From IMG/VR virus record IMGVR_UViG_3300044667_000075, positions 1-64,000 of that record: a DNA stretch of 64,000 bases, one strand, 5' to 3'. Every line of letters starts with the position of its first letter. The stretch's first letter is position 1. This stretch comes from a virus (taxonomy: Duplodnaviria; Caudoviricetes). The notes under the pieces were generated by a model. The model was given only the letters and a program-made list of their open reading frames with translations. It searched no databases and had not been told where the DNA came from. Position numbers and translations under genes: made by a program. This document shows positions 2,578 through 63,285 of the stretch, piece by piece.

Positions 2578-3141
2578 CTACCCCTGATAGACGGGACCCC
2601 AGAAGGGCCCGTCGTTCCAGTCGGTGCCGCGCGGAGTCCACCCGCCGATCGGGGTATCTGCTTCCAGGACGCCAGTCCTCGGAGAGACACGCGTGTTGGA
2701 GTCCTCGCCCGTGAAGATGGCCGGGATCCGGTTGATGATCGTCCCGACTTCATCCCCGATCCCAGGTGCCGGTGCCGGGTCGAGAAGGATTGCCCCCTTG
2801 CGCACCTCTTCCAGCATGTTCATCGCGTTCTGGTAGGCGATGTACGTTGGGTGGGTCGGCTCGATGGCCTTCCCCTTGGCGTAGGTCCGCCAGGCCCAGA
2901 ATGCGGCCAGGTCGAGGGTGAGGTCGTGCAGGATCGGAGGCGGGTTCGCCTGCGCGGTAGAGCCGTCGTAGACGTTCCCGGCATATACCGAGACCGTGTT
3001 GCTCGCCCGGTACAAGGCGAGGGTGAGTTGCGCGTCGGTCAGCTGCGCCGGCGTGCCGGTACCCGAGTCGGTGCCCGCGAGGATGTCCCGCAGGTCAGCG
3101 ACTGTGGCGTAGAGGGTGCCGGACGCGGCAGGGTTCGGCAT
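2578..3141 (-). CDS. Head-tail adaptor (Mu gp36-like)
   Basis: YATVADL N-terminus, PPILHDLTLDLAAF, YQNAMNMLEEV pattern. Confidence 0.7.
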   Translation of the reverse strand: MPNPAASGTLYATVADLRDILAGTDSGTGTPAQLTDAQLTLALYRASNTVSVYAGNVYDGSTAQANPPPILHDLTLDLAAFWAWRTYAKGKAIEPTHPTYIAYQNAMNMLEEVRKGAILLDPAPAPGIGDEVGTIINRIPAIFTGEDSNTRVSPRTGVLEADTPIGGWTPRGTDWNDGPFWGPVYQG

Positions 3142-3144
3142 GCG

Positions 3145-3345
3145 CTATGGCACCGCCCAGGCGAGCACCCACGCGGCGAACGCGCCGAACGCCCAGCCCC
3201 ACATCGGCGCGTCGAGGATCCGCGACCCGCACGCGGTCAGCGCCGCGAACAGGAAGCACACCGCGGCGATGATCAGCAGGACCCTTGACACGTACCACGG
3301 GGAACGCGGCGGGACCGGGGGCTGAGGCTGGCCGGGGGCTGCCAT
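3145..3345 (-). CDS. Small membrane protein
   Basis: Two hydrophobic segments, in operon. Confidence 0.65.
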   Translation of the reverse strand: MAAPGQPQPPVPPRSPWYVSRVLLIIAAVCFLFAALTACGSRILDAPMWGWAFGAFAAWVLAWAVP

Positions 3346-3347
3346 CG

Positions 3348-3593
3348 CTACACCTGACCCCAGTTCGACGGCTCGTTCCCGCCGCCGGTCAGGTTCTCCA
3401 GGAACGGGCCGAGCGACGACCCGCCGTTGCTGGACTTCTGCTGCGTGGTCAGCGCGGTGATGTTGCTGCCGAGCGCGGTCGCCAGTGCCGACCCGGCCGG
3501 GACATCGATCACCGTCCCGCGGGGGATCCGCTGCGACACCCCATCCCAGGTGATGGTGCAGTCGGCGTTGACGAGTTGCGGGTTGGATGCCAT
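3348..3593 (-). CDS. Small virion-associated protein (paralog family)
   Basis: MASNPQLV start; PAGSALATALGSNI motif shared with neighbours. Confidence 0.65.
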   Translation of the reverse strand: MASNPQLVNADCTITWDGVSQRIPRGTVIDVPAGSALATALGSNITALTTQQKSSNGGSSLGPFLENLTGGGNEPSNWGQV

Positions 3594-3820
3594 CAGTTGT
3601 CCACCTCCGAGAGATCCACCGTGTTCGCTTGGTCTCCGTCCGCGGAGATCACCGCGAGATTTCCCGAGTTGCCGCCGTAGGCTGCGTACAGGGCCGATCC
3701 GGGGGCGATGCTGACCGCAGCGCCATGCCGCACGAACCGGCGCATGGGCACGCCGTTGGCGTGCTGGCCCCACGACACCACCGTGTCGTTCAGGACGCGC
3801 ATGGGCTGCGGGGCGGTCAT
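3593..3820 (-). CDS. Small virion-associated protein (paralog family)
   Basis: MTAPQPMR start; APGSALYAAYGGNSGNL motif. Confidence 0.65.
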   Translation of the reverse strand: MTAPQPMRVLNDTVVSWGQHANGVPMRRFVRHGAAVSIAPGSALYAAYGGNSGNLAVISADGDQANTVDLSEVDN

Positions 3821-5431: not shown

Positions 5432-5995
5432 CTACTGGCCCCCGCGGGCCCGGCCGCCGCCGCGGCGGGGCGGCAGGTCAAGGGCATCCGCCGTAGCCCG
5501 CAGGTTGTCCGCCATCTCGCCCGGCTCCGGGCTCGCAGGCTCGACACCCTCCGGGGCGCGGCCCTCAGCCAGGTACTGGATCGCGGACGAGCCCTCCGGG
5601 TCAGGGCGGGGCGCGTCACTGCCAGGAGGCGGAGTCGTCGGCCGGAACAGGCGGCCCGACACGGCGCGCGGCGGGACCTTCGGCACCGGCTCGTGTGATC
5701 CGTCCGGGCCGGACAGCTTCCGGACGACCTCGATCTGCCGGCCGTCACGGGCGCCGTGCCGGTTGAACGCGCGGGCCTCTTCCTCGGTCAGGTAGATCGT
5801 CTCGCCGGCCATCACGAGGTCGGTGGCCCGGTCCTTGTCCCCGCGCCGGGGAACGGACAGGTTTACCAGCGCCACGTACGGCTCGCCGATCCGGGTCGAC
5901 GGCGAGCCCTTGTCCCTGGCCAGCAGCTTGGCCAGCGTGTCCCGCTCAGCGTCAGTGAGCGGACGGGCCTCAGTGGCAGTTGCGGCATCTGCCAT
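5432..5995 (-). CDS. Hypothetical protein downstream of capsid
   Basis: MADAATATE start with AGAGGT RBS, high GC3. Confidence 0.7.
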   Translation of the reverse strand: MADAATATEARPLTDAERDTLAKLLARDKGSPSTRIGEPYVALVNLSVPRRGDKDRATDLVMAGETIYLTEEEARAFNRHGARDGRQIEVVRKLSGPDGSHEPVPKVPPRAVSGRLFRPTTPPPGSDAPRPDPEGSSAIQYLAEGRAPEGVEPASPEPGEMADNLRATADALDLPPRRGGGRARGGQ

Positions 5996-6035
5996 TTCTT
6001 GGCACCTCTCTAATCGGTCGGGGGGGGGACCGGAA

Positions 6036-6947
6036 CTAAACCCCGCTGAGCAGGCAAACGGCGAGTGGTTGGTCAAGCCCAACTGCGCTGGACCTTTGGG
6101 TGTCTGACCTCCAGACCTTGCGGGGCTCGTCCCGATACAAGGGCCCAGCGACGAACGGCAGCTCGTCGGCATAGAACCCGGCCCGGTGGCGCTGCATGAT
6201 GATCGCGTTGCCCGCCGGGACCTGCCGGGAGACCAGCACGTCGAGGTTGAAGATCTTCTGCGGCAGCGTGCCCGTGTACAGCAGGTTCTCGCTCGCGATG
6301 TCGCCGATGTACGGCGCGGCGAACGTCGAGGACTGGAGCAGCGTGTTCTTCGTGCCGTGGTTGATGATCAGCGTGTCGGCCTCGAAGCCCAGCCACTGGG
6401 TCACGCCCGACGGGGAGACGATGTTGGCGTTCTCCACGAGGTAGACGGCCTGCGCGATGTCCGCGCGGATCGTCGCCGAGGCGGACGCCCACGGGTTGGC
6501 GACGGCCAGGGTCTGGATGCTCGCGTTGGCGACCACCGCGGAGTAGAACGCGGTGTTCCACGAGTAGACCATCGTGTTCTTGACCTGCAGCAGCTGCCGG
6601 GTCACCGGGTCGATGGCCTGCCGGCGGCGCATCTCGTCGCTGACCATGATGGCCATCGCGCGTTCGTGGGTGAACACCACCCGCGGCACGCCGATCGAGG
6701 TCGGGACGACCGGCACCTCGCCGAACTCGGGCCGGATCTCCGGGAAGTCGTCGGCGTACAGCGGCGTCGACTCGGAGTACCGGACCGCGCCCGAGGGGGC
6801 CGCGCCACCCATGCGGAGAACCGAGTCCATGATGAACTCGTTAGCGGTGATGTCCAGGATCAACGCCGGAATGACGAGCGGATCCTTGAGGAGCTCGTTG
6901 ACGGTTATCCGCGGTGCGTCGCTATAACCGCGTGCGCCGGTCGGCAT
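6036..6947 (-). CDS. Major capsid protein
   Basis: 303 aa after protease/decoration; EIRPEFGEVP, DTLIIN, C-terminal DQPLAVCLLSGV typical of actinophage HK97-fold capsids. Confidence 0.85.
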   Translation of the reverse strand: MPTGARGYSDAPRITVNELLKDPLVIPALILDITANEFIMDSVLRMGGAAPSGAVRYSESTPLYADDFPEIRPEFGEVPVVPTSIGVPRVVFTHERAMAIMVSDEMRRRQAIDPVTRQLLQVKNTMVYSWNTAFYSAVVANASIQTLAVANPWASASATIRADIAQAVYLVENANIVSPSGVTQWLGFEADTLIINHGTKNTLLQSSTFAAPYIGDIASENLLYTGTLPQKIFNLDVLVSRQVPAGNAIIMQRHRAGFYADELPFVAGPLYRDEPRKVWRSDTQRSSAVGLDQPLAVCLLSGV

Positions 6948-7742: not shown

Positions 7743-9080
7743 CTACTTCAGGCCCGTCATGGTCTTGAACCGGTTCACCACGTCGGAGCGGGACGCCTGG
7801 GCCTTCTCCGCGACCTCAGAGTCCTCCGGGGCGTCCATCGGGGAGCCGAGTTCCACGTCGAGGTCGAGGAGGCGGGCCTGGTTGGCGTACTCGGTGAGGA
7901 CCTTCCGCATGATCTGCCCGGCGTCCGCGGTCTTCCCGTTGGCGAGTTCGACGGTCCGGCCGGCGCCCTCGAGGAGCGGCCTCGCGAGCTCGGTGATGAA
8001 CGGGGGAACGCCCAGGTCGGCGAGGCGCCGCTTCTCCGCCTGGTAGTCCTGCTCGCGGAGCCGGGCGGAGATGACGGCCATCTCCCGCTGGGTTTCCTCG
8101 GCCCGCGCGTTGGCCAGGTCGATGGCGAACTGCGCCTCGGCGCTCAGTCCTGCGGCCACGGGCTCACGCTCCTGTTCCTGCTCGTACTCGGCGGTGGCCT
8201 GCTCGGCGGCGTACTCCGCCTCGAGGGCCGCGAACTCCTCGTCGGACATGGCGGCGATCTGCGCGGCGATGTCGTCCGGCTCCTCGCCGTCCTCGGTCTC
8301 GGTTCCGTCGGCGCTGCCCCAGTGGGTGTTGTCGTCCTCGGCGTCGATGTCGCCGGCGATCAGTGCCAGCTCCTCCGGGGTCAGGACCAGGCCCTCCGCC
8401 ATCGCGTCGATCTGCGACTCGGGCAGTTCGAGCAGCTTGGCGAGCTTGGCCTTCTGGTCGTCGGTCAGGTCCATGTCCAAGCCCCTTCCGGCTGGCTGAT
8501 CTGCTGACTGGCTGGAGACGGACGGGGCGGCCGGGGGCGGTGCCGGGGTGGCCTCGCCCGCGAAGTGGGAGGCGGACAGGTCGACCACCGTGTCCGGGAC
8601 GGGGGTGGCGGCCTCGATCGCCTGCCACGCGCCCAGTCCGGGGATGCGTGGGTCGAGGGTGCCGAGGACGTGCTGGACGGCCGCGGGGAAGTGGCGGCCG
8701 TCCGACCTCGCGTAGTCCTCCACGATCCGCGCCGACACGCCGAGCCGCGGGTTCGCCTCGAGGACCTTCTCCCCCTCAGGGGTGAGCTCGGCGGTCACGT
8801 ACAAGCCGTCGTCACCGAGCTCCATCGCGGTAATCTGCCCGCGGGTCCGCTCCGGGTCGTTGGTGTGCGTGTTCTGCGCGTCGGCCAGCTGGAACGGAAC
8901 CTGGTCATAAGCGCCGGACTGGAACGCCTGCACAAGCCGGCCCAGGTAGTCCCTGGTGAAGTGCAGCATCCGGCCCTTGTACTCGACGTCCCCGATGGGG
9001 AGGAGCTTCTTCCGCCACAGCCTGGAGCCCAGTTCGACGGCATCGCCGGCCGTGAACGGGGTGAGGACGAGGGCGGTCAC
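7743..9080 (-). CDS. Prohead protease / scaffold (Mu gpI-like)
   Basis: N-terminal protease-like domain (H in NTHT, GLY..ELT.EG, VSARI, HVLGTLDP), acidic helical C-terminal scaffold. Confidence 0.8.
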   Translation of the reverse strand: MTALVLTPFTAGDAVELGSRLWRKKLLPIGDVEYKGRMLHFTRDYLGRLVQAFQSGAYDQVPFQLADAQNTHTNDPERTRGQITAMELGDDGLYVTAELTPEGEKVLEANPRLGVSARIVEDYARSDGRHFPAAVQHVLGTLDPRIPGLGAWQAIEAATPVPDTVVDLSASHFAGEATPAPPPAAPSVSSQSADQPAGRGLDMDLTDDQKAKLAKLLELPESQIDAMAEGLVLTPEELALIAGDIDAEDDNTHWGSADGTETEDGEEPDDIAAQIAAMSDEEFAALEAEYAAEQATAEYEQEQEREPVAAGLSAEAQFAIDLANARAEETQREMAVISARLREQDYQAEKRRLADLGVPPFITELARPLLEGAGRTVELANGKTADAGQIMRKVLTEYANQARLLDLDVELGSPMDAPEDSEVAEKAQASRSDVVNRFKTMTGLK

Positions 9081-10159
9081 TAGCTGGCCGCCTGCCCGAA
9101 CGCGCCGGCCTTCGTGTTCTGCGCCCGCTTAGCGAACGCGAGAGCCCGCTCTTTGGTGAACCCCTTGGCGATCAGCTTCTTGTAGATCGCCTGCCCCTTG
9201 GCGTTCAGGCCCCCGGCGTAGTCCTTGTCGGTGTCCCCCGACGCGCTGGAGTCGTCGTCTCCGTCGTCATCGGGGTCGTACTTCCCGGATCCGCCCGCTG
9301 CGGTGACCCGGCCGCCGCCGCTCGAGCTCGTGGTGGGGGTGGCCAGCGCGCGGATCGCCGGGATCCCGTACTCGGCCATCAGCTCGGTCTGCTGCGGCGG
9401 GGGCTGCAACGGGCCGGGCGCGGGGCGGAGGGAGCCGGTGACCGCGGCGTTGTAGGAGCTGACCGCTTCCATGAGCGCGGTCCGCTGGTGGTCCCGGGGC
9501 GCGAGGTCCTTCCCGGCGACCGTGGCGACCCATTTCCCGGTGGCGTCCTTGCGGAGCTGGGCGATCTCGCCGCCGCCGTGCCGGTGCCGCAGGACCGCCG
9601 TACCGTCATCGCCGCGGGCCACGAGGACATCCATCGGGCCGGAGACCGGGCGGCGGGTCCGCGCGGTCAAGGTGCCCGACGTGAGGCCGATCGCGCCGGG
9701 GGTGACGTTCGACAGGGCGTGGGAGTCGCTGCCGCCGCGGACGGTCGTCGCGGCGCCGTCACGCACAGAACCCGTGCCCGGCGCTGGGGTGCGGAGCTCG
9801 CCGGGCTGCTTGTCCAGAGACGCGCCGTCCGCGCCGAACGAGGATGCGGGGCCGGAGTAGTTGCACTCGGGGCAGGTAAGGGTGAAGCCCTGGCTGTCTG
9901 TGGTGGTGACGGAGAGGTAGATGTCCGGGTCGCCGTACTGGCCTTGGATGTAGTCGGTGCCCCATGCGATCTGGGTGGCGGGGTTGGAGTGGGCGTGGGC
10001 GGACAGCTTGGCCATCTTGGCCGTGCCGTACTTCTTCCGGCCGATGAAAGCCGCGAGGGCATCGGGATCGTGGGCGCCGCGAGCGGCGAGGGCGGACGAC
10101 AGCTTCTTGAACCGCGCGCCGCTGCCGAGCTTCGGCGCAGCGAAGTCAAGGGACGCCAC
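9080..10159 (-). CDS. Head-associated hypothetical protein
   Basis: 359 aa ORF coupled to protease; Zn-ribbon half CPEC, acidic DPDDDGDDD tract. Confidence 0.75.
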   Translation of the reverse strand: MASLDFAAPKLGSGARFKKLSSALAARGAHDPDALAAFIGRKKYGTAKMAKLSAHAHSNPATQIAWGTDYIQGQYGDPDIYLSVTTTDSQGFTLTCPECNYSGPASSFGADGASLDKQPGELRTPAPGTGSVRDGAATTVRGGSDSHALSNVTPGAIGLTSGTLTARTRRPVSGPMDVLVARGDDGTAVLRHRHGGGEIAQLRKDATGKWVATVAGKDLAPRDHQRTALMEAVSSYNAAVTGSLRPAPGPLQPPPQQTELMAEYGIPAIRALATPTTSSSGGGRVTAAGGSGKYDPDDDGDDDSSASGDTDKDYAGGLNAKGQAIYKKLIAKGFTKERALAFAKRAQNTKAGAFGQAAS

Positions 10160-10300
10160 AGGAACGCCTTCCCGCCGCCACCCCTGACTGCTAAAAGCAG
10201 GCTAGCAGGCAAAACGCTCGGATGCACGTTCTGATGCACTTGCAGATGCACATTCGGCGCGTCGGGCATGGCCTGCGGGTCTCGCCCTTTATGCTCAGAG

Positions 10301-10349
10301 GCAGAACCGGGCACCAGCCGACACCCCTGTCACAAGTGCCCGGTTCTGC
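10301..10349. terminator. Stem-loop (14-bp stem)
   Basis: GCAGAACCGGGCAC...GTGCCCGGTTCTGC at 3' end of 10349-11209. Confidence 0.6.
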
Positions 10350-11209
10350 TATGCCTGAGCTACGACGCCCTCCGGAGTGATCGTGTTGGCGGGAACTAGC
10401 CCGTAGATCTCATTGAGTACGCCGACGATCTCGCCTTCTGTCAACCCGGGCACCCGGAACCACTCGCAGACCCGGTTGTGCTTCTGCTCGAATGCGGGGA
10501 GCCACTGGAAGGCGAGCGTCGCCTGCATCCACGCCTCGGTACGGGTGTCGCCGGGCTGCTTCCAGATGCACGAAGCACCCTCGGCTCCCCAGCCGCGCCG
10601 CCTAGCTCGTGTGCGCGCTACGCCTACGAAGATCGAGTTCTGCGTGTCGGTGGTGAAGCCGACCTTCAGAACCTGCGGACCGGGGAACCACACGGCATAG
10701 ACGGACGGGATGCCCTTCTGCGCCTGGCGGCGGTACCGGACCAGTTCGTTACGCTGCTCTTTGGTTGCGGGTACCCGCTGAACCTTCGGCCCGAGTTCCA
10801 CACCTCGGACCTCTCTCGCCAGCAAGCGGATGTATTCGATCTTGCACTTGCCGGGACGACCGCACACCGGGAACTTTGATGTAGTCGGCTGTCCGCACAG
10901 AGAGCACGGATGGACGGGAGGCCGCTCGCTGCGGCGGGGGCCTCTGATGGCCCCGAGGAACAGCCGCATGTACTCGGTCCGGCACTTGCCTGGGCGGCAG
11001 CATATCGGGAACTTCGAGTTGGTCGGCTGGCCGCATAGTGAGCAGGGATGGCGCAGCGGGGCTACCTTGCCGCCTCTCGCTGCTTTCGCCTGGCGCTTGT
11101 TCTCCGCCCGGCATTTGCCGGGGCGGTAGCAGACTAGAAACTTCGATGTGGTCGGCTGGCCGCAGATCGTGCAGGGGCGTGTTTCACCCTGCTTGTACCC
11201 TTGCTCCAA
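10349..11209 (-). CDS. Putative homing endonuclease: 3 Zn-finger repeats + T5orf172/GIY-YIG-like domain
   Basis: 3x PCxxCGQPTxSKFxxCxRPGKC; SVYAVWF...LKVGFT...E...EWF. Confidence 0.7.
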   Translation of the reverse strand: MEQGYKQGETRPCTICGQPTTSKFLVCYRPGKCRAENKRQAKAARGGKVAPLRHPCSLCGQPTNSKFPICCRPGKCRTEYMRLFLGAIRGPRRSERPPVHPCSLCGQPTTSKFPVCGRPGKCKIEYIRLLAREVRGVELGPKVQRVPATKEQRNELVRYRRQAQKGIPSVYAVWFPGPQVLKVGFTTDTQNSIFVGVARTRARRRGWGAEGASCIWKQPGDTRTEAWMQATLAFQWLPAFEQKHNRVCEWFRVPGLTEGEIVGVLNEIYGLVPANTITPEGVVAQA

Positions 11210-11247
11210 GGGACTTCCCTCCGTCTAGGTCGGAGCGGCGGTTTCTA

Positions 11248-25159: not shown

Positions 25160-26765
25160 TCACTGCTGTCCCAGCCGCCCGTTGGCGCCGTGCGAGGACG
25201 GCACCGGAGGCGGCGACGGAGGTCCCGCGGGTGCCTGGCCCAGCTTCGGCGGGGGAGGCGGGCGCAACCCCTGGCCGCCGTTCTTCGCCGCGGCCTGCTG
25301 CGCGATGCTCATGCCCGCATGCGCCAGGCCCTGCAACTGCCCCAGGCCAGCCGCGGCCTCCGGGGGCATGCCCGGCGGAGGATTCGCCGCCAGCTGCTCC
25401 GCGCGCTGACTCGCCGTGGAGACGAGCGCGTCGTGAACCTTGTCCACGTCCAGCTGGAGGATCGACGCCATCCGCTCACAGATCAGGTCAAAGACGGCCA
25501 ATGGCACGTGAAGCACGGGGGCCGCGCTCATCTGTCCGAACAAGGTCAGCAACGCCTGCGCCTGCTCGTCCTGCAACGGGCCGAACTTGCACTGCGGGAA
25601 CGCCGCGTCAGCGCCGAAATTCAGCATCACCAGCGGGCGAACCACGTCGTAGCTCAGCGACTCGGCGATCTCCTTCGCCACCGCCTGACGGGACTTCAAG
25701 TAAAAGTCGCTCTGATCCTGCGACAGCGCGTAACTGCCCCGGCCGCCAGTCGCCGAGCCGGCGAGGCCGAGGAACCCCGCGAGGACGCTGTGGATCTGCC
25801 ACTGCTCCAGGAAACCCATGGCGTCGCGGAAGAACTGGCCGGCGTCCGCAGGCTGCGGGATGACCTCAAAAGCTTTCTGCCCGTCAAGCGGATGCACCAG
25901 GCCGACCACGCCCGAGCCCTTGAGCTGGGCGATGTCATCGGCCCTCGCTGTCGCCTCCGGCTGGTCGTTCCCGTAGGCGACAACCCGCTGCAACGCCAGG
26001 TTCTCGAGGAAGTGCCACCACAGGAACATGAGCTTGAGCTTCGTCGAGTAGCACCACCAGGAAATCTCCATCTCGCTGACGCCCGTCAGCGGCTCCCGGT
26101 GCTTCCCGTGCGTGTAGATGTAGCTGCGGACCTTCGGGATGTCGACGTAGCCGGGAACCTTCTGATGCTTCGTCAGCTGCAGGTTCCCGCCGAACAGCCA
26201 CACCTGCTGACGGAACCCGTTCGGCTCCCCCGACCGGTCGTTGTACCGGGCCTGGCACGTCGCAGGAGGACGGTAGGCGACTTTATCGTAGATAATCTTC
26301 CCGTCATCACGGACTTTGAACGTCTTCTCGACCAGGTAAGAAGAAGGCCCTCCGGAATATTTGCGCACTTGTCACTTGGCCGACCAACTCAGTCATGGGT
26401 GTTTTCATGCCGCCCGCCACGTCGGGGGTCAGCAGAACCGACCGCGCGAAGTCCGCCTCGCCCTTGTCGCCCTTGCCTGGCTCGATCGAGAAATCAGCCT
26501 CGCGGATCGGCAGGGTAAGTACCATCTCCAGCGCGCTGGCCATGCCGTCGCGACCGAACATCGTCTTCATGTCACGAGCCGACCACTCTCCGTAATCAAA
26601 GACATCGCCTTCGCCCTAAATAATAGGCAAACAAACGCTGACCCCAATCAAATTGGGTAAAGTGCCGATCTCTGGGCCCATGAGGGCGCGTTTCCCGCCA
26701 TTACCGCGGGAGCCCTTCGGGGGGAGATCGGGGAAGGCAATCACGTTAGCATTTCCGGATGCCAT
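25160..26765 (-). CDS. Portal protein (Mu gp29/DUF935-like), discontinuous ORF with three TTA-initiated coding gaps
   Basis: Between TerL and MuF. ATG at 26765 with AGGAGGT RBS; RGSYALS, SLSYDVVRPLVMLNFG...FP motifs. Removing 26656-26660, 26616-26619 and 26330-26339 gives a continuous 528-aa frame. Confidence 0.85.
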
Positions 26766-26937
26766 CTTCTTGCATCACCTCCTCTCCGCTGCTCGGGGCG
26801 CTCAGGGGCGCCGGTAGACCTGGACATCAAGGCGAACGTGCATCTGCACATGCACGCACGTCTCCAGGGCCACTCTACCGGGCTGCTGACCTGCGGGGAA
26901 TCACCCGGCTTGCGACACCTCACGCGTCGCGTCCGCC

Positions 26938-28617
26938 TCACCGCCACGCCCGCACGTTCCCCCGCCGCCCTCCAGGCCGTTCCTGCTCGTCGGCGCGCGG
27001 CTCAAACCCGTCCAGGCCCCAGTCACCGCCAAGCACGTCCAGGCCCTGGCTATGGATCTCCCGCATGCGCTTCTGTGCCCGTGTCTCGTCGGTGACCCCA
27101 AGGTTCCTCATGTCCTCCGAGCCGTCCCACGGGCGCGCGTTCGGCACGTGCTCGCCGAGGTGCGGCACGAACGCCTGGACTACGGCGTCACCGTCGTCGG
27201 TGGACCGGCCTAGGCGCTTCTTGATGTCGTCCTTGCTCTCCACCTGGATCCGCCCTCCTGACGTAACCGTCCACTGAGGCGCCGACAGGTCACCGAGAAG
27301 CATCTCGTCATCCGGCAGGCAGATGTCCGGCTCTCCGGACGGGTCCAGGTTCTGCCGCAGAGACCACCACGCTTCGCTGCGCCGGTTCGCGAACCCGAAC
27401 TCCCTGGTGGAATCCTTCGCCTTGGATGCGCGGGACGCGTTGAACGCCACGACCTTGGCGTGCTGCTCACGGAGCCGGTCCACGACGCCCGAGCCGATGC
27501 CGATCACGTCGACCACGGCGGTACGGGACGTGTCAGCGTCCAGGATGGCCTTGGTGCGGCCGGTGGTGGCCATGGTGTCTTCCTTAACGAACCGCCGCAG
27601 CTCCGTGATCACATGCCCGTTGCGGATCGCGAGGACGGTCCGGTCCTCACCTGTCCGTGCCACGTCCACGCCGACCGTGCGAGGCCTGCCCGTGTCGGGG
27701 CTGCCCGCAGCCTTCCACGCGTGCCAGCGTTCCACCGCCGCCTCGGCCCATGCCAGCGGGATCACCGCGTCCTCATCGCCCGCGTGGAACTCGCCGAGGA
27801 CGCGGTTGACGTAGATCGCCGAAGTCTCGCCCCACTGCCGGGCCCGCTGCTCGGCCCATTCCCGGGTGATCCGCCCGGCCGCTATCGCATCCTCGAGCGA
27901 AACGTGGACCGGGTGCCAGTCCTCGTACCCGGCGCGGCGGGACTGGATGTCGTAGAACCGGCCCTGCGGGGCGCCGGGAGTCGACAGGGCCAGCGCGAAC
28001 GCCTCGCCCGCGCCCTCGCCGGCACCGGAGAACGCGCCCTCGCAGGCGTCGAACGTACCCGCGGGGATCGCCTTGGCCTCGTCGTAAACGAACAGCAGCG
28101 AGTCGGCGTGCGCGCCCTCGATCAGGGCGGCGTTCGCGGACGCGCCGGCGAACGCGTGGCCGAAGCCGAGCCGCAGGTTCAGGTTCTGCAGTTCCGTCCG
28201 GGTAAACGGACGCCCGTCGCGGACGACATCCCAGCGGACCCGGCCGGCCCACTTGTGGATCTCCGGCCAGAGGTACTGCGTCAGCTGGTGCCACGACCCG
28301 GCGGTCGTCGCGACCTTCCAGTCAACCCCGGCAGCATCACGGGTCAGCGCGAACCACAGCACCGTCACCGCCGAGATGCAGCTTTTCCCGAGCCCGTGCG
28401 GCCCGCGGACGGCCTGCCGTTTCCGCTCCGGCAGCCCGCCGATGATGTCCTGCTGGTACCCGGTCAGGCCGTCGCCGCGGAAGTCGATGCAGTCATGCGC
28501 GAACGCGAGCGGGTCGTTGTAGTACCTGGCGACCCCGCGCTTGATCCGTGCGGCTTTGCGCTGGAGTTCCAGCAGGTAACGCAGGCGTTCAGGCGGGGCT
28601 TGTATCTGCAGGGTCAT
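26938..28617 (-). CDS. terL: Terminase large subunit
   Basis: Walker A GPHGLGKS, Walker B VYDEA, LSTP motif, nuclease GVDVA..GED and STDDGDA. Confidence 0.93.
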   Translation of the reverse strand: MTLQIQAPPERLRYLLELQRKAARIKRGVARYYNDPLAFAHDCIDFRGDGLTGYQQDIIGGLPERKRQAVRGPHGLGKSCISAVTVLWFALTRDAAGVDWKVATTAGSWHQLTQYLWPEIHKWAGRVRWDVVRDGRPFTRTELQNLNLRLGFGHAFAGASANAALIEGAHADSLLFVYDEAKAIPAGTFDACEGAFSGAGEGAGEAFALALSTPGAPQGRFYDIQSRRAGYEDWHPVHVSLEDAIAAGRITREWAEQRARQWGETSAIYVNRVLGEFHAGDEDAVIPLAWAEAAVERWHAWKAAGSPDTGRPRTVGVDVARTGEDRTVLAIRNGHVITELRRFVKEDTMATTGRTKAILDADTSRTAVVDVIGIGSGVVDRLREQHAKVVAFNASRASKAKDSTREFGFANRRSEAWWSLRQNLDPSGEPDICLPDDEMLLGDLSAPQWTVTSGGRIQVESKDDIKKRLGRSTDDGDAVVQAFVPHLGEHVPNARPWDGSEDMRNLGVTDETRAQKRMREIHSQGLDVLGGDWGLDGFEPRADEQERPGGRRGNVRAWR

Positions 28618-29179
28618 TGCGGGCCAGCTGAGACTCAAGTTCGGCGATCTGCGACTCGACCATGTCGGCGGTGATTACCTCAACGCGGGACTTGGAGGGC
28701 GCGTCATAGCCGAAGATCTTCGCGCGCCGCTCAAGCAGGGCGCGGATCTCGCGGATGGCCGCGAGGGCGGGCCCGTCGTCCAGGATGTCCTCATACAACC
28801 CGATGGGCTTGCCGTCGCCGCCGTAGAGGATTTCTCCGTTGTCGTCACGCTGCCAGCCGACCAGCTTGCCGACGACGCGGCCCTGGGAGACGGCGACGTG
28901 CTCCTTGAGCATGATCTCCCACGCCTTCTCGATGAGCCGGTCGATCCGCTCAAGATCCAGTCGCCGGGCTTGCTCGGTGGCCTCTGAGGGGATGTCGGCG
29001 AAGGCGCGCATGACGGCCTCGTGCGCCTTGCCTTTGTGGGTGAACCCGAGTTCGTCGGCTATCCGCTGATAGGACCAGCCCTGGCCGTGAAGCTCGGCGG
29101 CCCGGTGGTCGCGCCTGGCGCTGTCGGCGGTGCGGATCCATTTGCCGCTACCACCGCGAGGCGGGGTTCCCTTGGTCAT
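28589..29179 (-). CDS. HTH protein, terminase small subunit candidate
   Basis: GWSYQRIADELG; LERRAKIFGYDAP; overlaps TerL start. Confidence 0.7.
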   Translation of the reverse strand: MTKGTPPRGGSGKWIRTADSARRDHRAAELHGQGWSYQRIADELGFTHKGKAHEAVMRAFADIPSEATEQARRLDLERIDRLIEKAWEIMLKEHVAVSQGRVVGKLVGWQRDDNGEILYGGDGKPIGLYEDILDDGPALAAIREIRALLERRAKIFGYDAPSKSRVEVITADMVESQIAELESQLARNDPADTSPA

Positions 29180-35025: not shown

Positions 35026-36872
35026 TCACTCGCCGGGGATCACCACCGTGATGGACTTCAGCCGGCCATTCATCCGGGACCGCGCCGACGGCTTCAGCGC
35101 CTCGGCAGCCTCAGCCTCGGCACCTGCAGCGCTGGCGGTGGCCTTGTCGAACTCGGCGAGGAACTGTCGGAGTTCGCCGATGGTCAGCTCGCCATCCGGG
35201 GCCCTGACGGTGATCGTGCGCTCGGTGCTCACCGCCGCCACCCCTGCGCGCAGACCAAGGCCAGCGCGGTGATGAATAGCCAGGACAGCAGGTGGATGTC
35301 CACGGTGATGATCGCGACGGTGATGAGGCTGACCTGCGCAGCCAGCGTTGGCCAGCGGAAGTACCCGCCGTGCCGTGCCGGGGCGTCCAGCCTGGGGGGC
35401 GGGACCAGAGTGCGCAACTCCTCGCAGTACGGGCACAAGCGCCGGCCCCTCGGGCCGGACAACGGCAGGTCAGACAGGCCGCACCCGGAGCAGGTCTCGT
35501 CGCGCCAGGCCGGGCCGCCGCAGAACAGGCACGGCTGCCACGGATGCCGGCAGGAACCCGTGATCCCCGGATACCGGCATTCGGTTCCACACCCCTCACA
35601 CCAGTGCGAATGCCCGACGGCGGGGCCGAGACTGTACGAGGCGGGCAGGAACATGCGCGCAACCGGGCCGAAGGTCTGCGGCTCCAGCGCACGCCGGCTC
35701 GCATCCTCGTACGCCTCCCGCTTCCAGCCGTGGACCAGGCCCGCGTACATCCCGCTGTCCGGGTATCCCTCCGGGCTGAGCGCCTGCCGCTTAGCCTCGG
35801 TGTATGACGGGAGGCGGATACAACGCGGGGACATGCACGGCAAGCCGCCGTTCACCACGTTGCAGATGCACCCCGGATCGTTCATCCGCTACCGCCTTCG
35901 ATCACGGCCGGCTCCCGGAGCACCTCACCGGCCATCACGGGCCGGTAGTCCTCGCCGCCAGCGTCATGGACCGGGCGGACGCTCACCTGGATCTCGGCAG
36001 CGGCAGCCTCCGCGGACTGCTGGTCGGCGAACGGGACGCGGATCTCACGGACGTTCGCCACGAACACACCCTGGCCGGTGAGGATGTCGAAGGGGCGGCC
36101 GAAGCGAATAACAACCTCACGCGCGGCCATGTCAGCATCCGGTCGGCGGCAGAAGGCCCGGCAGGGCGACCGGCGTGACCATCGGCCAGTCGAACGCCGG
36201 CAGGCAGCGCGGCGGATCTGCCGTGAACTCGAACTCGGGCAACTCGAACACTGGAGGGTTCAGCAGGATCACGTCCGAGGAACGCGCCAGGAAGCGGGTC
36301 GGCCGGATCTCTGTGACCCTCTCGCCGGCGCGGAATAGGGCCACCGTGGCGTCCGTCTCACGGTCGGGCGCGCACAAGGCCAGAGCCCAGCGGCCAGGCT
36401 TACGATTCTTGCTCACTGCACCTGCTCCCTCTCGCAGATCAGCCTCAGCTCCAGGGTGTCGGCATACGGCATCTGCGCCCGCATCCGGTCCAGCTCGATC
36501 AGGACCGCCTGCTGCCAGCCGATCACGGCGTTGTCGGCCATCGTGGCCAGGTCGATGCGGCGGCGCAACTCCGCGTGCGCGGTCTCGTCAGCCATCGATC
36601 CTCCCGCTCTTGAGTACCTGGCCGTGCTCAAGTAGTTCCCACCCGCCAGAGCCGAGCGCCGGATCGACCTCAACCGCCGCTGAGCCGTACGCGCCGACAG
36701 GGCTGGCGACGGGACCGCCTGGAGCAGCCCAGTCGAGCGGCTCGTTCGCGGCGGCCTTCCTGATCGCCGCGGCCACGTCCGGGTGGCAGCGGAACGTGTA
36801 CCGCCGCATCTCCCGTGGCAGGCCCTCCACTACCGTGAGTAGCCACTCGTCAAGGTCCGGGATCACGGGCAT
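35026..36872 (-). CDS. Cluster of small coupled hypothetical genes (35026-35232, 35229-35885 Cys-rich + TM, 35882-36130, 36132-36416, 36413-36595, 36588-36872)
   Basis: Consecutive overlapping start/stop codons. Confidence 0.45.
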
Positions 36873-56290: not shown

Positions 56291-56686
56291 TTACTCCGGG
56301 GGTTCCGGGATGGGCAGGTCCGCGTCGGAGGCCGCGGCGACGATCAGGCGACGGGGTACGCCTGCGGCGGCTGCGTCCGTGCACAGCCGCTCCCAGTCCT
56401 GCTCGGATTCGCTAGCCCGCCGCTTCGCCGCCGCTGCCTTCCGCGCGCTGGCTCCCAGCTGCCAGCGCCACCGGCCAAGCTCAGCGCCGCTGAGTTCCGG
56501 GGCAGCCTCAGGTGCGGGGCCGGGCGGTTGAGGCCGTGTACGGCGTCCTGACGGCTTCCTGGGCCGTGCTGGCGCGGCGTCGGCCTCCGCCGGGGGAGCG
56601 GCCTCCCCGGCCCCGTCATCGTCTTCTGCGGCGATCTGCTGCTTGAGGAGGTCTCCCATGCCCCGCCGCTGCCGGGCCGCGTTCAC
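56291..56686 (-). CDS. ParA partner / centromere-binding candidate
   Basis: GTGA overlap with ParA; flexible N-terminus, C-terminal HTH-like AAAAGVPRRLIV. Confidence 0.55.
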   Translation of the reverse strand: MNAARQRRGMGDLLKQQIAAEDDDGAGEAAPPAEADAAPARPRKPSGRRTRPQPPGPAPEAAPELSGAELGRWRWQLGASARKAAAAKRRASESEQDWERLCTDAAAAGVPRRLIVAAASDADLPIPEPPE

Positions 56687-57411
56687 GACGCACCACCGAG
56701 GTTGCGACGGCCGAGGTCAATCAGGAGCTCGGTATGCAGGGCGGCGATGTCCTCCCGGAGTTTCGGCGCGTACCGTTCGTTCCACCGGGTGATCGGCACC
56801 CCCGCCTGGAGGCTGTTGGGCCACGCCCGGTACAAGCGGATCACGGTGCGGAAGTGGCGGATGCCCTGCCGGTCGAGCAGGTCCCACGCGTCCTGGACGA
56901 ACCCGGCGCCATCGGGCCCGATGAGGCGGGGGTCCACCTTGGTCAGCACGACCGCGTACGGCACCCCTGCGGCGGCGACCCGCTTGGCGGTGCGGACGGT
57001 CGGCATGACCGACTCCGGCACGTGGTCGTAGGGGATCAGCACGAACGTGGCCCGCTCGAGCACCTCGTCGAGGACACCCCCGGCATGGTCGAGGGTGCCG
57101 GGGGTGTCGACGTAGATCGAGTCGTAGTCGCGGACTTGGCTGATCCGGGTCAGCTGCTTCGGGTCGAGCTCGTGGATCACGTCGTAGCCGGGGTCGCTCA
57201 TGGCCTGGGTGAGGTCGTAGGCGTTGGCCTGGGGGTCGGTGTCCGCGACGAGGGCCCGGCCGTGGGCGGCGGACGTGTGGGCGGCCAGCTGCATGATGGT
57301 GGCGGTCTTGCCTGAGCCGCCTTTGCCGTTGAGGGCCGCGATGACATAACTGTCCGTTTGCCGGGCATTCCCGGGGAGTGCGCCGCTCTGGGCGGTGGCA
57401 TGGGTTGTCAT
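56683..57411 (-). CDS. parA: ParA/Soj partition ATPase
   Basis: KGGSGKT, DTDPQAN, VDTPG, VVLTKVD. Confidence 0.9.
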   Translation of the reverse strand: MTTHATAQSGALPGNARQTDSYVIAALNGKGGSGKTATIMQLAAHTSAAHGRALVADTDPQANAYDLTQAMSDPGYDVIHELDPKQLTRISQVRDYDSIYVDTPGTLDHAGGVLDEVLERATFVLIPYDHVPESVMPTVRTAKRVAAAGVPYAVVLTKVDPRLIGPDGAGFVQDAWDLLDRQGIRHFRTVIRLYRAWPNSLQAGVPITRWNERYAPKLREDIAALHTELLIDLGRRNLGGAS

Positions 57412-57957
57412 GGGCGGCATCGTCGCATAGCGCGGCGGCCAGGTGAAGGCGTGCGGTAAGGTTTCGGGCTGGATACCGGGACCCTTGGCGGCCCTCTGTC
57501 TCGTTCCTGCGGAGGGCCGCCGCGGGGGTCTGAACCGTGGGGGGTTCGATGGGCGAGGATGAGCGGTCAGCCGAGACACCGGAAGAGACGCACGTGGCCG
57601 GCCTGCTGTCGGGATTAATCCGAGGCGACAGCGACAGTGAAGTCACCCTTTCGGGCCGCTGCGGGCAGTGCGGGTACCAGAGGGGATCGCGGTCGTGCGT
57701 GGTGGTGTGCGGCGAGGAACCGCAGCCTTAGCCTTCCTGCTCCCTGGCGGCACGCTCTGCGTTGATCCGCTGCTGCGCCTCGGCCTGGACGCGGCGCATG
57801 GCCTCGGGCTGGGCTGGCGGGGAGTTGCGGCAGGCGCGGTGTTCGAGCCAGAGGACGGCCAGGCCGGTGAGAATGAGGCCGGTGAACACCCCGGCAAGCT
57901 GCCATAGTGACATTGCGTACCCCCTCAATCACTTAGCGTACCGGCCCGGCGTGCCCG

Positions 57958-62493: not shown

Positions 62494-63135
62494 TCACGGC
62501 GTGGCGCGCGGTAAGCCTGCCGCGCTGCACCCGCCGGGACGCCCCCCGATCAGGTGGGCCCGCACCTCGGGAGACATCGTGTCGACGGCGCGGTGGAACG
62601 CCAGGGTCGCGGCGGCCTGCCACAGGCTCCACCCGGCCGTCATGAGGAAATCCCACCGCGCCTGGGTGTCGGGGCCGAAACCGGGCACGCCGGCGAGGTC
62701 CGGGGGGAACACCTGGTTCGCGGTGAGGGCCGCGGACGGGTCGGTGAGGTCTGCGCCGTGCTCGCGTGCCGCTTTCTCCACGAGGGCGCGGAGCTGGCCG
62801 AAGTACAGCGTCGCCTCAGGGTTGATCGTCTCGATGAGCTGCTGGGGGAACGGGGCGCCGCGTCGTTCCAGCCGCTGCGGTTCCGGCCGGAGCGGGGCCG
62901 ACAGCGGCTCCTCCCCGGTGAGGATGCGGGCAGCGGTGCCGCGTTCCCAGCGCAGGCCCTTGTCGATCGCCGCGAGGGTGCGGGGTGTCAGTTCCTGCTC
63001 CCCGGTGCGGGCCCTGACGAGAGCCCGCAGCGAGACGCCGCCAGCCGTGGCCACGTCCTGCCACCGGAGCCCGAGCTCGATGAGCCGGTCTTCCATCGCT
63101 TCGGCGAGCCGTCTCCGTGCTTGTGTCTGTGCCAA
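62494..63135 (-). CDS. CI-like XRE repressor
   Basis: RLIELGLRWQDVATAGGVS...TLAAIDKGLRWERG; start uncertain. Confidence 0.75.
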   Translation of the reverse strand: MAQTQARRRLAEAMEDRLIELGLRWQDVATAGGVSLRALVRARTGEQELTPRTLAAIDKGLRWERGTAARILTGEEPLSAPLRPEPQRLERRGAPFPQQLIETINPEATLYFGQLRALVEKAAREHGADLTDPSAALTANQVFPPDLAGVPGFGPDTQARWDFLMTAGWSLWQAAATLAFHRAVDTMSPEVRAHLIGGRPGGCSAAGLPRATP

Positions 63136-63285
63136 CGATCCTCCGCGTGCGTTCCGGCGCTCCCCGGCACGAAGGTACACGCGTTTGCGCGCATCGGGGA
63201 GGCCTAAAACCCTTACGGCATAGGCGTTTCGTGACGCGCGGGGCGCGTGGGGCGCAAGTTCAGCAGCGAGAAGGCGCGTCATGTC

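Follow-up and report, generated by a model that had tools for sequence, protein, structure and literature searches.

A phage portal gene with three TTA-led coding gaps: candidate serial translational bypassing and its possible link to homing nucleases

Introduction

How could an essential head protein be made from a gene whose reading frame breaks three times near its start? The question is raised by the portal gene of a high-GC soil phage, the IMG/VR virus record IMGVR_UViG_3300044667_000075 (125,263 bp; 69% G+C; rated 100% complete). We analyzed positions 1-64,000 of that record, hereafter the window, and coordinates are those of the window unless stated otherwise. On its minus strand, a Mu-type portal gene runs from 26765 to 25160 and is spread over three reading frames. 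An earlier sequence-only reading proposed that ribosomes bypass three short blocks in this gene, each triggered by UUA. Comparison with relatives strongly supports this proposal through recurrent gaps, matched landing triplets, gaps of 3n length that contain stops, and selection on the restored frame. We consider it likely, from these sequence comparisons, that the full-length portal is made by hops at three serial TTA-led bypass sites.

Results

Three TTA-led gaps interrupt the portal gene

Four segments of 35, 12, 92 and 389 codons join to a portal of 528 amino acids once 5 + 4 + 10 = 19 bases are omitted (Table 1). With the omitted bases in brackets, site 1 reads GGC ACT [TTACC] CAA TTT GAT TGG and site 2 reads TAT TAT [TTAG] GGC GAA; at site 3, TTC TTC is followed by TTACCTGGTC and then by GAG AAG. 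The gap sequences and coordinates agree base for base with the sequence-only reading, as does the continuous product. Its claim that a stop follows within 15 codons if UUA is decoded as leucine also holds, the old frame closing 15, 8 and 11 codons past sites 1, 2 and 3, respectively.

Segment 4 matches PF06074 (Portal_Mu / DUF935) with an E value of 5e-19 and 69.1 bits (cut-off 23.9) over profile positions 79-320. In intact relatives, the match starts at profile position 5-6 and spans 5-321. Because the open reading frame (ORF) after gap 3 starts only at profile position 79, the Portal_Mu domain itself is split by that gap. The N-terminus MASGNANVIAFPDL is kept in the two closest relatives (L002 and L012), the segment 2 motif QFDWGQRLFAYY is invariant among intact homologs, and a Shine-Dalgarno (SD)-like GGAGAGGAGG lies 14 nt upstream of the portal ATG at 26765.

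TTA is rare in this phage, with 7 occurrences in 19,830 codons over 74 confident ORFs of the whole 125-kb genome. About 0.05 TTA would be expected in 140 codons; three are seen, every one exactly at a frame break. No in-frame TTA was found in the large terminase (terL), the 1518-aa ORF (both as the earlier reading had noted) or the 814-aa FtsK-like ORF. In the C-terminal portal part, pooled over all loci described below, TTA accounts for 1 of 31,087 codons. ARAGORN found no tRNA-Leu encoded in the 125-kb phage genome, its sole call being a tRNA-Ser(GCT) at 95,996-96,070.

Table 1. Portal segments, coding gaps and other features of the window.
Feature	Position	Strand	Remarks
Portal segment 1	26661..26765	-	ATG + 34 codons; take-off codon ACT (Thr35) at end
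Coding gap 1, TTACC, 5 nt	26656..26660	-	TTA in A site after ACT; landing ACC, same tRNA-Thr; resume CAA
Portal segment 2	26620..26655	-	12 codons, QFDWGQRLFAYY; take-off codon TAT at end
Coding gap 2, TTAG, 4 nt	26616..26619	-	TTA after TAT; landing TAG (2/3); resume GGC
Portal segment 3	26340..26615	-	92 codons, GEGDVFDYGEW...RRAFF; take-off codon TTC at end; Portal_Mu profile ~5-78
Coding gap 3, TTACCTGGTC, 10 nt	26330..26339	-	TTA after TTC TTC; landing GTC (2/3); resume GAG
Portal segment 4	25160..26329	-	389 codons + stop, EKTFKV...GQQ*; bulk of Portal_Mu domain
Large terminase (terL)	26938..28638	-	Directly upstream of portal; one frame, without gap
T5orf172-like zinc-ribbon protein	10349..11224	-	PF10544 E 0.18, below cut-off; 15 kb from portal

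Separate assemblies and purifying selection argue against a broken gene

Three frame breaks within 440 nt of an essential gene look like a pseudogene, and the data are metagenomic; the whole stretch occurs only in the run that is probably its source, and other runs contain short related fragments. The element might be defective and its portal in decay, or the breaks might stem from an assembly or sequencing error. The inserts, on the other hand, are 4-10 nt long and are not homopolymers. In the run that is probably the source, a separately built contig of 4,983 nt (depth 17) has the same sequence at 26200-26900, although it comes from the same sample and is not independent.

Relatives speak more directly to this alternative. 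A viral-contig scan gave 11 portal loci, from which a portal DNA alignment was built; the relatives' portals are 64-85% identical to segment 4 of the window. In the more distant ones (64-75% identical), the portal is in a single frame, with GT-QFD, YY-GEG and FF-EK contiguous. Eight intact relatives lack exactly the three blocks in the DNA alignment, as do the 38 or more intact loci of the larger set described below, so the motifs that the sequence-only reading expected to be uninterrupted in homologs are indeed so. The two closest relatives, L002 (85%) and L012 (83%), come from other metagenomes and are both interrupted, by other blocks at the same or neighboring codons. Their blocks measure 8 nt against 5 in the window, 7 against 4, and 8 or 10 against 10. 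The gaps of L002 are ACT TTAGGACC CAA, TAT[TGATTAA]GGC, GAT TTAATTGAA TAC and TTC TTACCGTC GAG; those of L012 are TTC TTAACGGTGTC GAT, two codons past window site 1, and TTC TTACCCGGTC GAG. Sequencing error is excluded because separate assemblies carry different multi-base inserts at the same codons, a pattern found in dozens of contigs from other samples.

Across the broken region (108 codons, EIGT to AFF), comparison of the window with seven relatives in the restored frame gives ratios of nonsynonymous to synonymous substitution rates (dN/dS) of 0.07-0.24; the gapped L008 and the intact L009 give 0.03 for the same N-terminal codons. Such values indicate purifying selection on this part of the restored gene. 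The genome is rated complete, with terL and other head genes intact. Taken together, the sequences indicate that the gapped portal is neither an error nor a pseudogene, and we regard a broken gene as highly improbable.

The same soil sample also holds, at a loose end at window position 26585, a related portal with another allele, TTC TTAATAGGTC GAC, at the -86 hot spot. Differently gapped relatives thus coexist within one soil sample.

Gaps recur at conserved motifs with matched landing triplets

Scans of metagenome and genome contigs with the portal alignment added 85 loci, the genome-contig part consisting of five contigs from metagenome-assembled genomes (MAGs); the first genome-contig scan, with a single-protein query, had found nothing. 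The first 140 codons of 95 loci were aligned to intact references by a frameshift-aware dynamic programme. Each gap was placed at the first TTA or stop codon of the upstream frame, and its 3' end was not used in placement. About 50 of the 95 loci are gapped, at the same sites as the window and at others, as the earlier reading had thought possible for related phages. The 67 distinct gap contexts fall at about nine hot spots, all within the most conserved motifs (GT|QF|D, YY|G, VF|D|Y|G|E, RD|MK and FF|EK).

Of the 67 contexts, 56 begin with TTA, five with TGA, four with TAG and two with none of these, and gap length ranges from 2 to 15 nt. In all 61 gaps of at least 4 nt, the last triplet matches the take-off codon or a wobble partner at two or more of three positions, and 24 match perfectly. 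Random triplets of the same sequences show a landing-type match in 22.8% of cases (nominal binomial P 7e-40, a value that overstates independence because the gap contexts are related by descent). In the window, the matches named by the sequence-only reading stand, ACT to ACC being cognate and TAT to TAG and TTC to GTC agreeing at two of three positions.

Alleles are varied at each site. At site 1, relatives carry TTAGACC, TTAGGACC, TTAAGGAACC, TTATAAACC (with an in-frame TAA) and TTAGGCC; at site 2, TTAT, TTAC, TGATTAA, TAGTTAC, TGAC, TGAAGAC and TGAAGTGC; and at site 3, TTACCGTC (8 nt, the other frame shift), TTACCCGGTC, TTAACTGGTC and TTAGCCGGTC. Two 2-nt 'gaps' in T runs, ATG TTT [TT] AGG and CAG TTT TT GAC (L008:1640-1660 and L087), fit the 4-15 nt pattern poorly; they could be +2 hops, -1 slips or assembly errors.

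This series bears on whether programmed +1 or -1 (or +2) frameshifting at or beside the TTA could connect the segments, giving a portal with one to three extra residues per site. Hungry codons are known to promote +1 shifting, and at window sites 1 and 3 the last few codons before the resume codon can be read in the target frame without a stop. For the terminase of the Streptomyces phage phiHau3, Antonov et al. could not at first rule out +1 shifting (PMC10732093). Intact homologs, in contrast, lack extra residues at the three invariant motifs. The window has no X XXY YYZ slippery heptamer, and at site 2 the target frame is closed by a TAG directly 5' of the resume codon. In-frame stops lie within four distinct gaps of 3n length (TTATAAACC, TTAACGTAGCTATTT, and TTAGAACGCTAATTC with three different flanks); plain translation through them is therefore impossible, and only a hop can read them. 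In L002, TAT[TGATTAA]GGC is closed in both frames, the old one by TGA and the new one by TAA, so that no +1 or -1 shift connects them. The orthologous gaps at site 3 are 8 nt in L002 and 10 nt in the window, L012, L015 and L094, so frameshifting would need opposite shifts where one type of hop explains both. The universal match between take-off and landing triplets would also be unexpected. We judge frameshifting to be very unlikely.

A peptidyl-tRNA re-pairing model for the portal gaps

A slow A-site codon, a short gap and a landing triplet for the P-site tRNA are the classical signature of bypassing by peptidyl-tRNA re-pairing. Under this model, the portal mRNA would contain three short untranslatable gaps, and the 528-residue product would form only if the ribosome hops each of them. 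With the rare, slowly decoded UUA in the A site, the P-site peptidyl-tRNA would detach (Thr on ACU, Tyr on UAU, Phe on UUC), the mRNA would slide by 5, 4 or 10 nt, and the same tRNA would re-pair where the gap ends, on a triplet that is cognate or near-cognate. The predicted hops are ACU to ACC at site 1 (+5, cognate; decoding resumes at CAA), UAU to UAG at site 2 (+4, two of three positions; GGC) and UUC to GUC at site 3 (+10, two of three positions; GAG). We infer the hop itself, and its efficiency, from sequence.

The frame would be restored equally well if the gaps were removed from the mRNA before translation by editing or micro-splicing. Removal would leave unexplained why each gap opens with a slow codon in the upstream frame and ends with a triplet matching the take-off codon. 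We know of no mechanism that excises 2-15 nt blocks of such varied sequence. The phiHau3 product, moreover, arose in E. coli from an unedited construct (PMC10732093). RNA removal therefore seems extremely improbable.

Several points weigh against bypassing, in addition to the shared descent behind the P value given above. All the portal sequences, gapped or intact, were assembled from metagenomes. Only one landing triplet of the window is fully cognate, the other two being near-cognate (UAG for tRNA-Tyr and GUC for tRNA-Phe), and the yield of three serial hops could be low. No stimulatory RNA structure was apparent, as folds around the sites in the window, L002 and L012 were no stabler than shuffles (z-scores +0.35, -0.9). 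An SD-like GGAGG precedes site 3 in the window and L015, and is absent from L002, L012 and L094. Given this variation among site 3 alleles, and an SD-like motif in only 14 of 63 gap contexts overall, an internal SD is not a conserved signal.

TTA codons elsewhere in the genome

Three heuristics gave no convincing further TTA gap elsewhere in the 125-kb genome; they are insensitive to clustered gaps, so absence is not established. Minus-strand TTAs at 62514 and 34621 were rejected as recoding sites, as they lie near gene ends where recoding is unnecessary, and plus-strand signals at 36400 and 36901 proved to be shadows of minus-strand genes. Ordinary in-frame TTA codons occur in ORFs at 62494-63282 (-), 56683-57579 (-), 5432-6172 (-), 69834-70601 (-), 90546-91937 (-) and 115028-115432 (+) in genome coordinates, two of the genome's seven such codons being in 62494-63282. 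These six ORFs might be TTA-dependent genes of another expression class.

A tRNA sensor is a doubtful function for the gaps

If the ribosome hops, why has such costly decoding been kept? One possibility is that the gaps sense tRNA-Leu(UAA), the bldA-type tRNA, such that portal would be made only while this tRNA is scarce and three serial sites would sharpen the response. This explanation shares the hop mechanism and differs only in the function that would be selected. Bypassing led by UUA has been proposed as a sensor of host growth stage for the phiHau3 terminase (PMC10732093). The dominance of TTA among gap contexts (56 of 67), its near absence elsewhere and the lack of a phage tRNA-Leu would suit a sensor, and because portal and terminase are needed in few copies, throttled synthesis may be tolerable.

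Nine contexts are led by TGA or TAG at a hot spot that the window shares, and tRNA-Leu sensing is therefore impossible there. The relatives' MAG bins are labeled Streptosporangiaceae, Mycobacterium and Kineosporiaceae. To our knowledge, Streptomyces is the only genus with documented bldA-type control. Such a switch is evidently dispensable for sister phages whose portals are intact, and the presence of gaps tracks nuclease genes, as described next. We thus find tRNA sensing doubtful as the selected function. Dependence on scarce tRNA-Leu(UAA) would follow automatically from the hops and need not be what was selected.

Gapped portals co-occur with nuclease genes

In intact loci, the terL ORF usually ends within ~20-170 nt of the portal start, while many gapped loci have an extra gene in between. 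Two types of inserted gene are HNH endonucleases by PHROGs (E 2.5e-12 for the L006 type and 1e-13 for the L015 type); Pfam did not recognize the inserted ORFs as HNH. A third type (L014, L016, L017, L061, L078 and L094) has zinc ribbons and sometimes a recombinase-type DNA-binding domain. It matches T5orf172, a member of the Pfam GIY-YIG clan, weakly but over the full length (E 0.03-0.18, below the Pfam cut-off).

By tblastn, an HNH or T5orf172-like ORF precedes the portal in 26 loci, and every one of these is gapped. When only loci that have at least 900 nt upstream are counted, 20 are gapped with a nuclease, 16 gapped without, 38 intact without and none intact with one. The gap thus always accompanies the nuclease and persists in some lineages that lack a nuclease gene (20 versus 16 gapped loci). 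On the portal tree, gap state changes at least six times and nuclease state at least 13 times.

One pair of loci is particularly informative. L043 carries an HNH gene and two gaps, whereas L045 has neither HNH nor TTA gaps. Past about portal codon 60 their sequences are identical, and in the first ~170 nt of the portal they differ by the gaps and by clustered silent changes. In sequence, this difference looks like the co-conversion tract of a homing event. L045 also has a 4-nt deletion (L045:1330-1345) exactly where identity to L043 turns 100%; two strains may have been joined in assembly, or a recombination border may carry a real frameshift. G+C at third codon positions (GC3) in the N-terminal 108 codons versus the C-terminal part is 0.75 versus 0.85 in gapped portals, 0.915 versus 0.924 in intact portals, and 0.72 versus 0.88 in the window. 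It is possible that the gap protects the DNA from the nuclease, a role to which the L043/L045 silent changes and the GC3 drop lend indirect support.

The slot between terL and portal is a general insertion hot spot. In L012 it has no recognizable nuclease and holds a weak Phd/YefM antitoxin-like ORF (2858-3148 (-), below cut-off) and a 155-codon ORF of unknown family (3142-3606 (+)); in L055 it holds a lipoprotein-like ORF. Repeats of the GTGCA(T/C)NTGCA type lie upstream of the portal leader in the window (26815-26860 (-)) and upstream of the gene at 10159 (10215-10260 (-)). Such motifs are common to relatives (L015:975-1030, L046:975-1040) and precede a conserved ribosome-binding stretch, GGAGAGGGGGTGAT. 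The repeats could be a late promoter or operator.

The window itself fits a nuclease explanation less well. No ORF lies between the terL end at 26938 and the portal start at 26765. The window also has no gap at the commonest hot spot (-86/-83). Its genome contains neither a PF01844 HNH domain nor a homolog of either HNH protein seen in the relatives. The match of the third gene type to T5orf172 is, as noted, below the cut-off, and phylogenetically independent pairs gave three changes in the same direction, none opposite and five ties, which is not significant (p 0.25). These points count against a link between nuclease and gap.

The window does encode a homolog of the third type of slot protein. 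The ORF at 10349-11224 is homologous to the T5orf172-like slot ORFs of L014, L016, L017, L061, L078 and L094 (E 2.5e-47 and 58% identity over 125 aa to that of L014). This 291-codon open frame has three tandem zinc-ribbon repeats (PC..CGQPT.SKF..C.RPGKC) and a C-terminal domain that is weakly T5orf172-like. Because of its distance from the portal and its different N-terminal zinc-ribbon array, it probably has another target, and a link to the portal gaps is only possible. A terminator-like hairpin and GTGCA repeats follow it, before the next gene at 9080-10159.

The window has gap sites 1 and 3 in common with L094 and L015, whose slots hold a T5orf172-like gene and an HNH gene, respectively. 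With less certainty than for the hops, we see a homing-nuclease origin, in which the gaps are protein-silent marks carried with or selected by nucleases, as the most likely one; it is plausible from the gene content of the relatives, where the support lies, rather than from the window. The window may keep the gaps of a lineage that once met such nucleases, or that still meets them in co-infection. On a broader reading, which we rate at slightly less than even odds, high-GC actinophages in general would use micro-gaps led by TTA or a stop as an evolutionarily mobile device; homing-nuclease sites within highly conserved coding sequence would be broken without altering the protein, because ribosomes hop over the gaps. 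The gaps of the window would then record repeated nuclease pressure and outlast the nuclease gene, and their dependence on UUA speed would be a by-product.

Discussion

The decoding principle is already known and has been partly tested for three terminase genes. UUA-mediated bypassing was described for the terminases of phiHau3 (g6/g7/g8) and of two prophages, StrepC.1 and that of S. catenulae (Smith et al. 2013, cited in PMC10732093). Antonov et al. 2023 (PMC10732093) report blocks in 3 of 100 terminase genes, at four sites, and formation of the full-length phiHau3 product in Streptomyces. They further report that in E. coli recoding is still permitted when UUA is replaced by UAA, and that the junction peptide indicates bypassing rather than frameshifting. 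Slow codons are, by the same source, to some degree interchangeable, which the natural TGA- and TAG-led portal alleles fit. We inspected the phiHau3 terminase junctions, GGC TTACTCCGGT AAG with landing GGT and TCT TTAACGGTCC ACG with landing TCC. The gene carries two 10-nt gaps, and the single gap named in the sequence-only reading was mistaken.

The phiHau3 type resembles the window in having TTA directly after the last conserved codon, a short block absent from intact homologs, an old-frame stop soon afterwards and a codon at the end of the block that is read by the take-off tRNA. In both, serial sites lie in a late, low-copy packaging gene of a high-GC actinophage. The phiHau3 type differs in affecting the terminase, with one or two sites, blocks of 7-10 nt and cognate landing, whereas the window has three sites in the portal, hops of 4 and 5 nt as well, and two near-cognate landing triplets. 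The portal family offers about 60 alleles at about nine hot spots, with stop-led and 3n gaps, against four published sites of the phiHau3 type. The nuclease link seen in the portal family is not mentioned in the part of PMC10732093 available to us. A nuclease beside the phiHau3 terminase was considered and rejected, as the upstream gp5 is the small terminase subunit. The Streptomyces phages BroPlease (ON526970.1) and GreenWeasel (ON526974.1) are 98-100% identical to the phiHau3 g7 segment and have the terminase annotated as separate genes 6 and 7; they are probably further cultured carriers of phiHau3-type gaps.

The association with nucleases recalls T4 gene 60 and MobA, where the gap is present in every phage with the nuclease and in some without, and where the slot holds different nuclease families (Manning & Atkins, bioRxiv 10.1101/2022.08.31.505936). 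Earlier work cited in that preprint found that the T4 insert prevents self-cleavage by MobA and leaves the conserved protein unaltered. As in T4, the portal hop would lead from a take-off codon to a matching landing codon while a stop or hungry codon occupies the A site, and the portal slot likewise holds several nuclease types (two HNH and one T5orf172-like), with every nuclease locus gapped. The T4 gap is 50 nt, while portal gaps are 4-15 nt with several per gene. No T4-style take-off stem-loop, conserved internal SD or nascent-peptide signal was detected at the portal gaps. Unlike T4 gene 60, the portal gene is not split into two ORFs by a nuclease, the window has no adjacent nuclease, and the role of the nucleases is a putative one.

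Other systems share parts of the pattern. E. coli reporters reportedly show short hops at hungry or stop codons (Weiss et al. 1987, Gallant et al. 2003). Like the proposed portal hops, these involve a slow A-site codon, detachment and re-pairing a few nt downstream, and minimal pairing can suffice; they are low-level and artificial, whereas the portal hop would be obligatory in an essential gene and is conserved. Mitochondria of Magnusiomyces capitatus are said to carry byps of 27-55 nt with hairpins (Lang et al. 2014). As in the portal family, there are many per genome or gene, they are mobile in evolution and their take-off and landing codons match; the byps are yeast mitochondrial, while the portal family has TTA-led phage micro-gaps. 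The Bxb1 primase genes 50/51 are overlapping ORFs for one protein with a rare UUA at the junction, for which frameshifting or bypassing was suggested (PMC12646305). That case concerns another gene with a single site and no comparative series. The sequence-only reading knew of no portal example of UUA bypassing, and our full-text literature search likewise found no published one. What sets the present case apart from those published are the portal gene, the three serial sites, hops of 4 and 5 nt, near-cognate landing, the stop-led and 3n series and the association with nucleases.

Very few natural examples of obligatory bypassing are known: T4 gene 60 with its homologs, the byps of yeast mitochondria, and three terminase genes of Streptomyces phages or prophages, with four proposed sites between them. 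About 60 natural portal alleles now spell out its rules, namely a slow A-site codon (TTA, TGA or TAG), a gap of 2-15 nt and a landing match at two or more of three positions. Gapped portals are annotated as two or three fragments or as pseudogenes, and essential genes of many soil actinophages are therefore probably mis-annotated. The co-occurrence with HNH-type and T5orf172-like genes ties UUA gaps to the selfish-element logic of T4 gene 60 and offers a testable answer to why costly decoding evolves.

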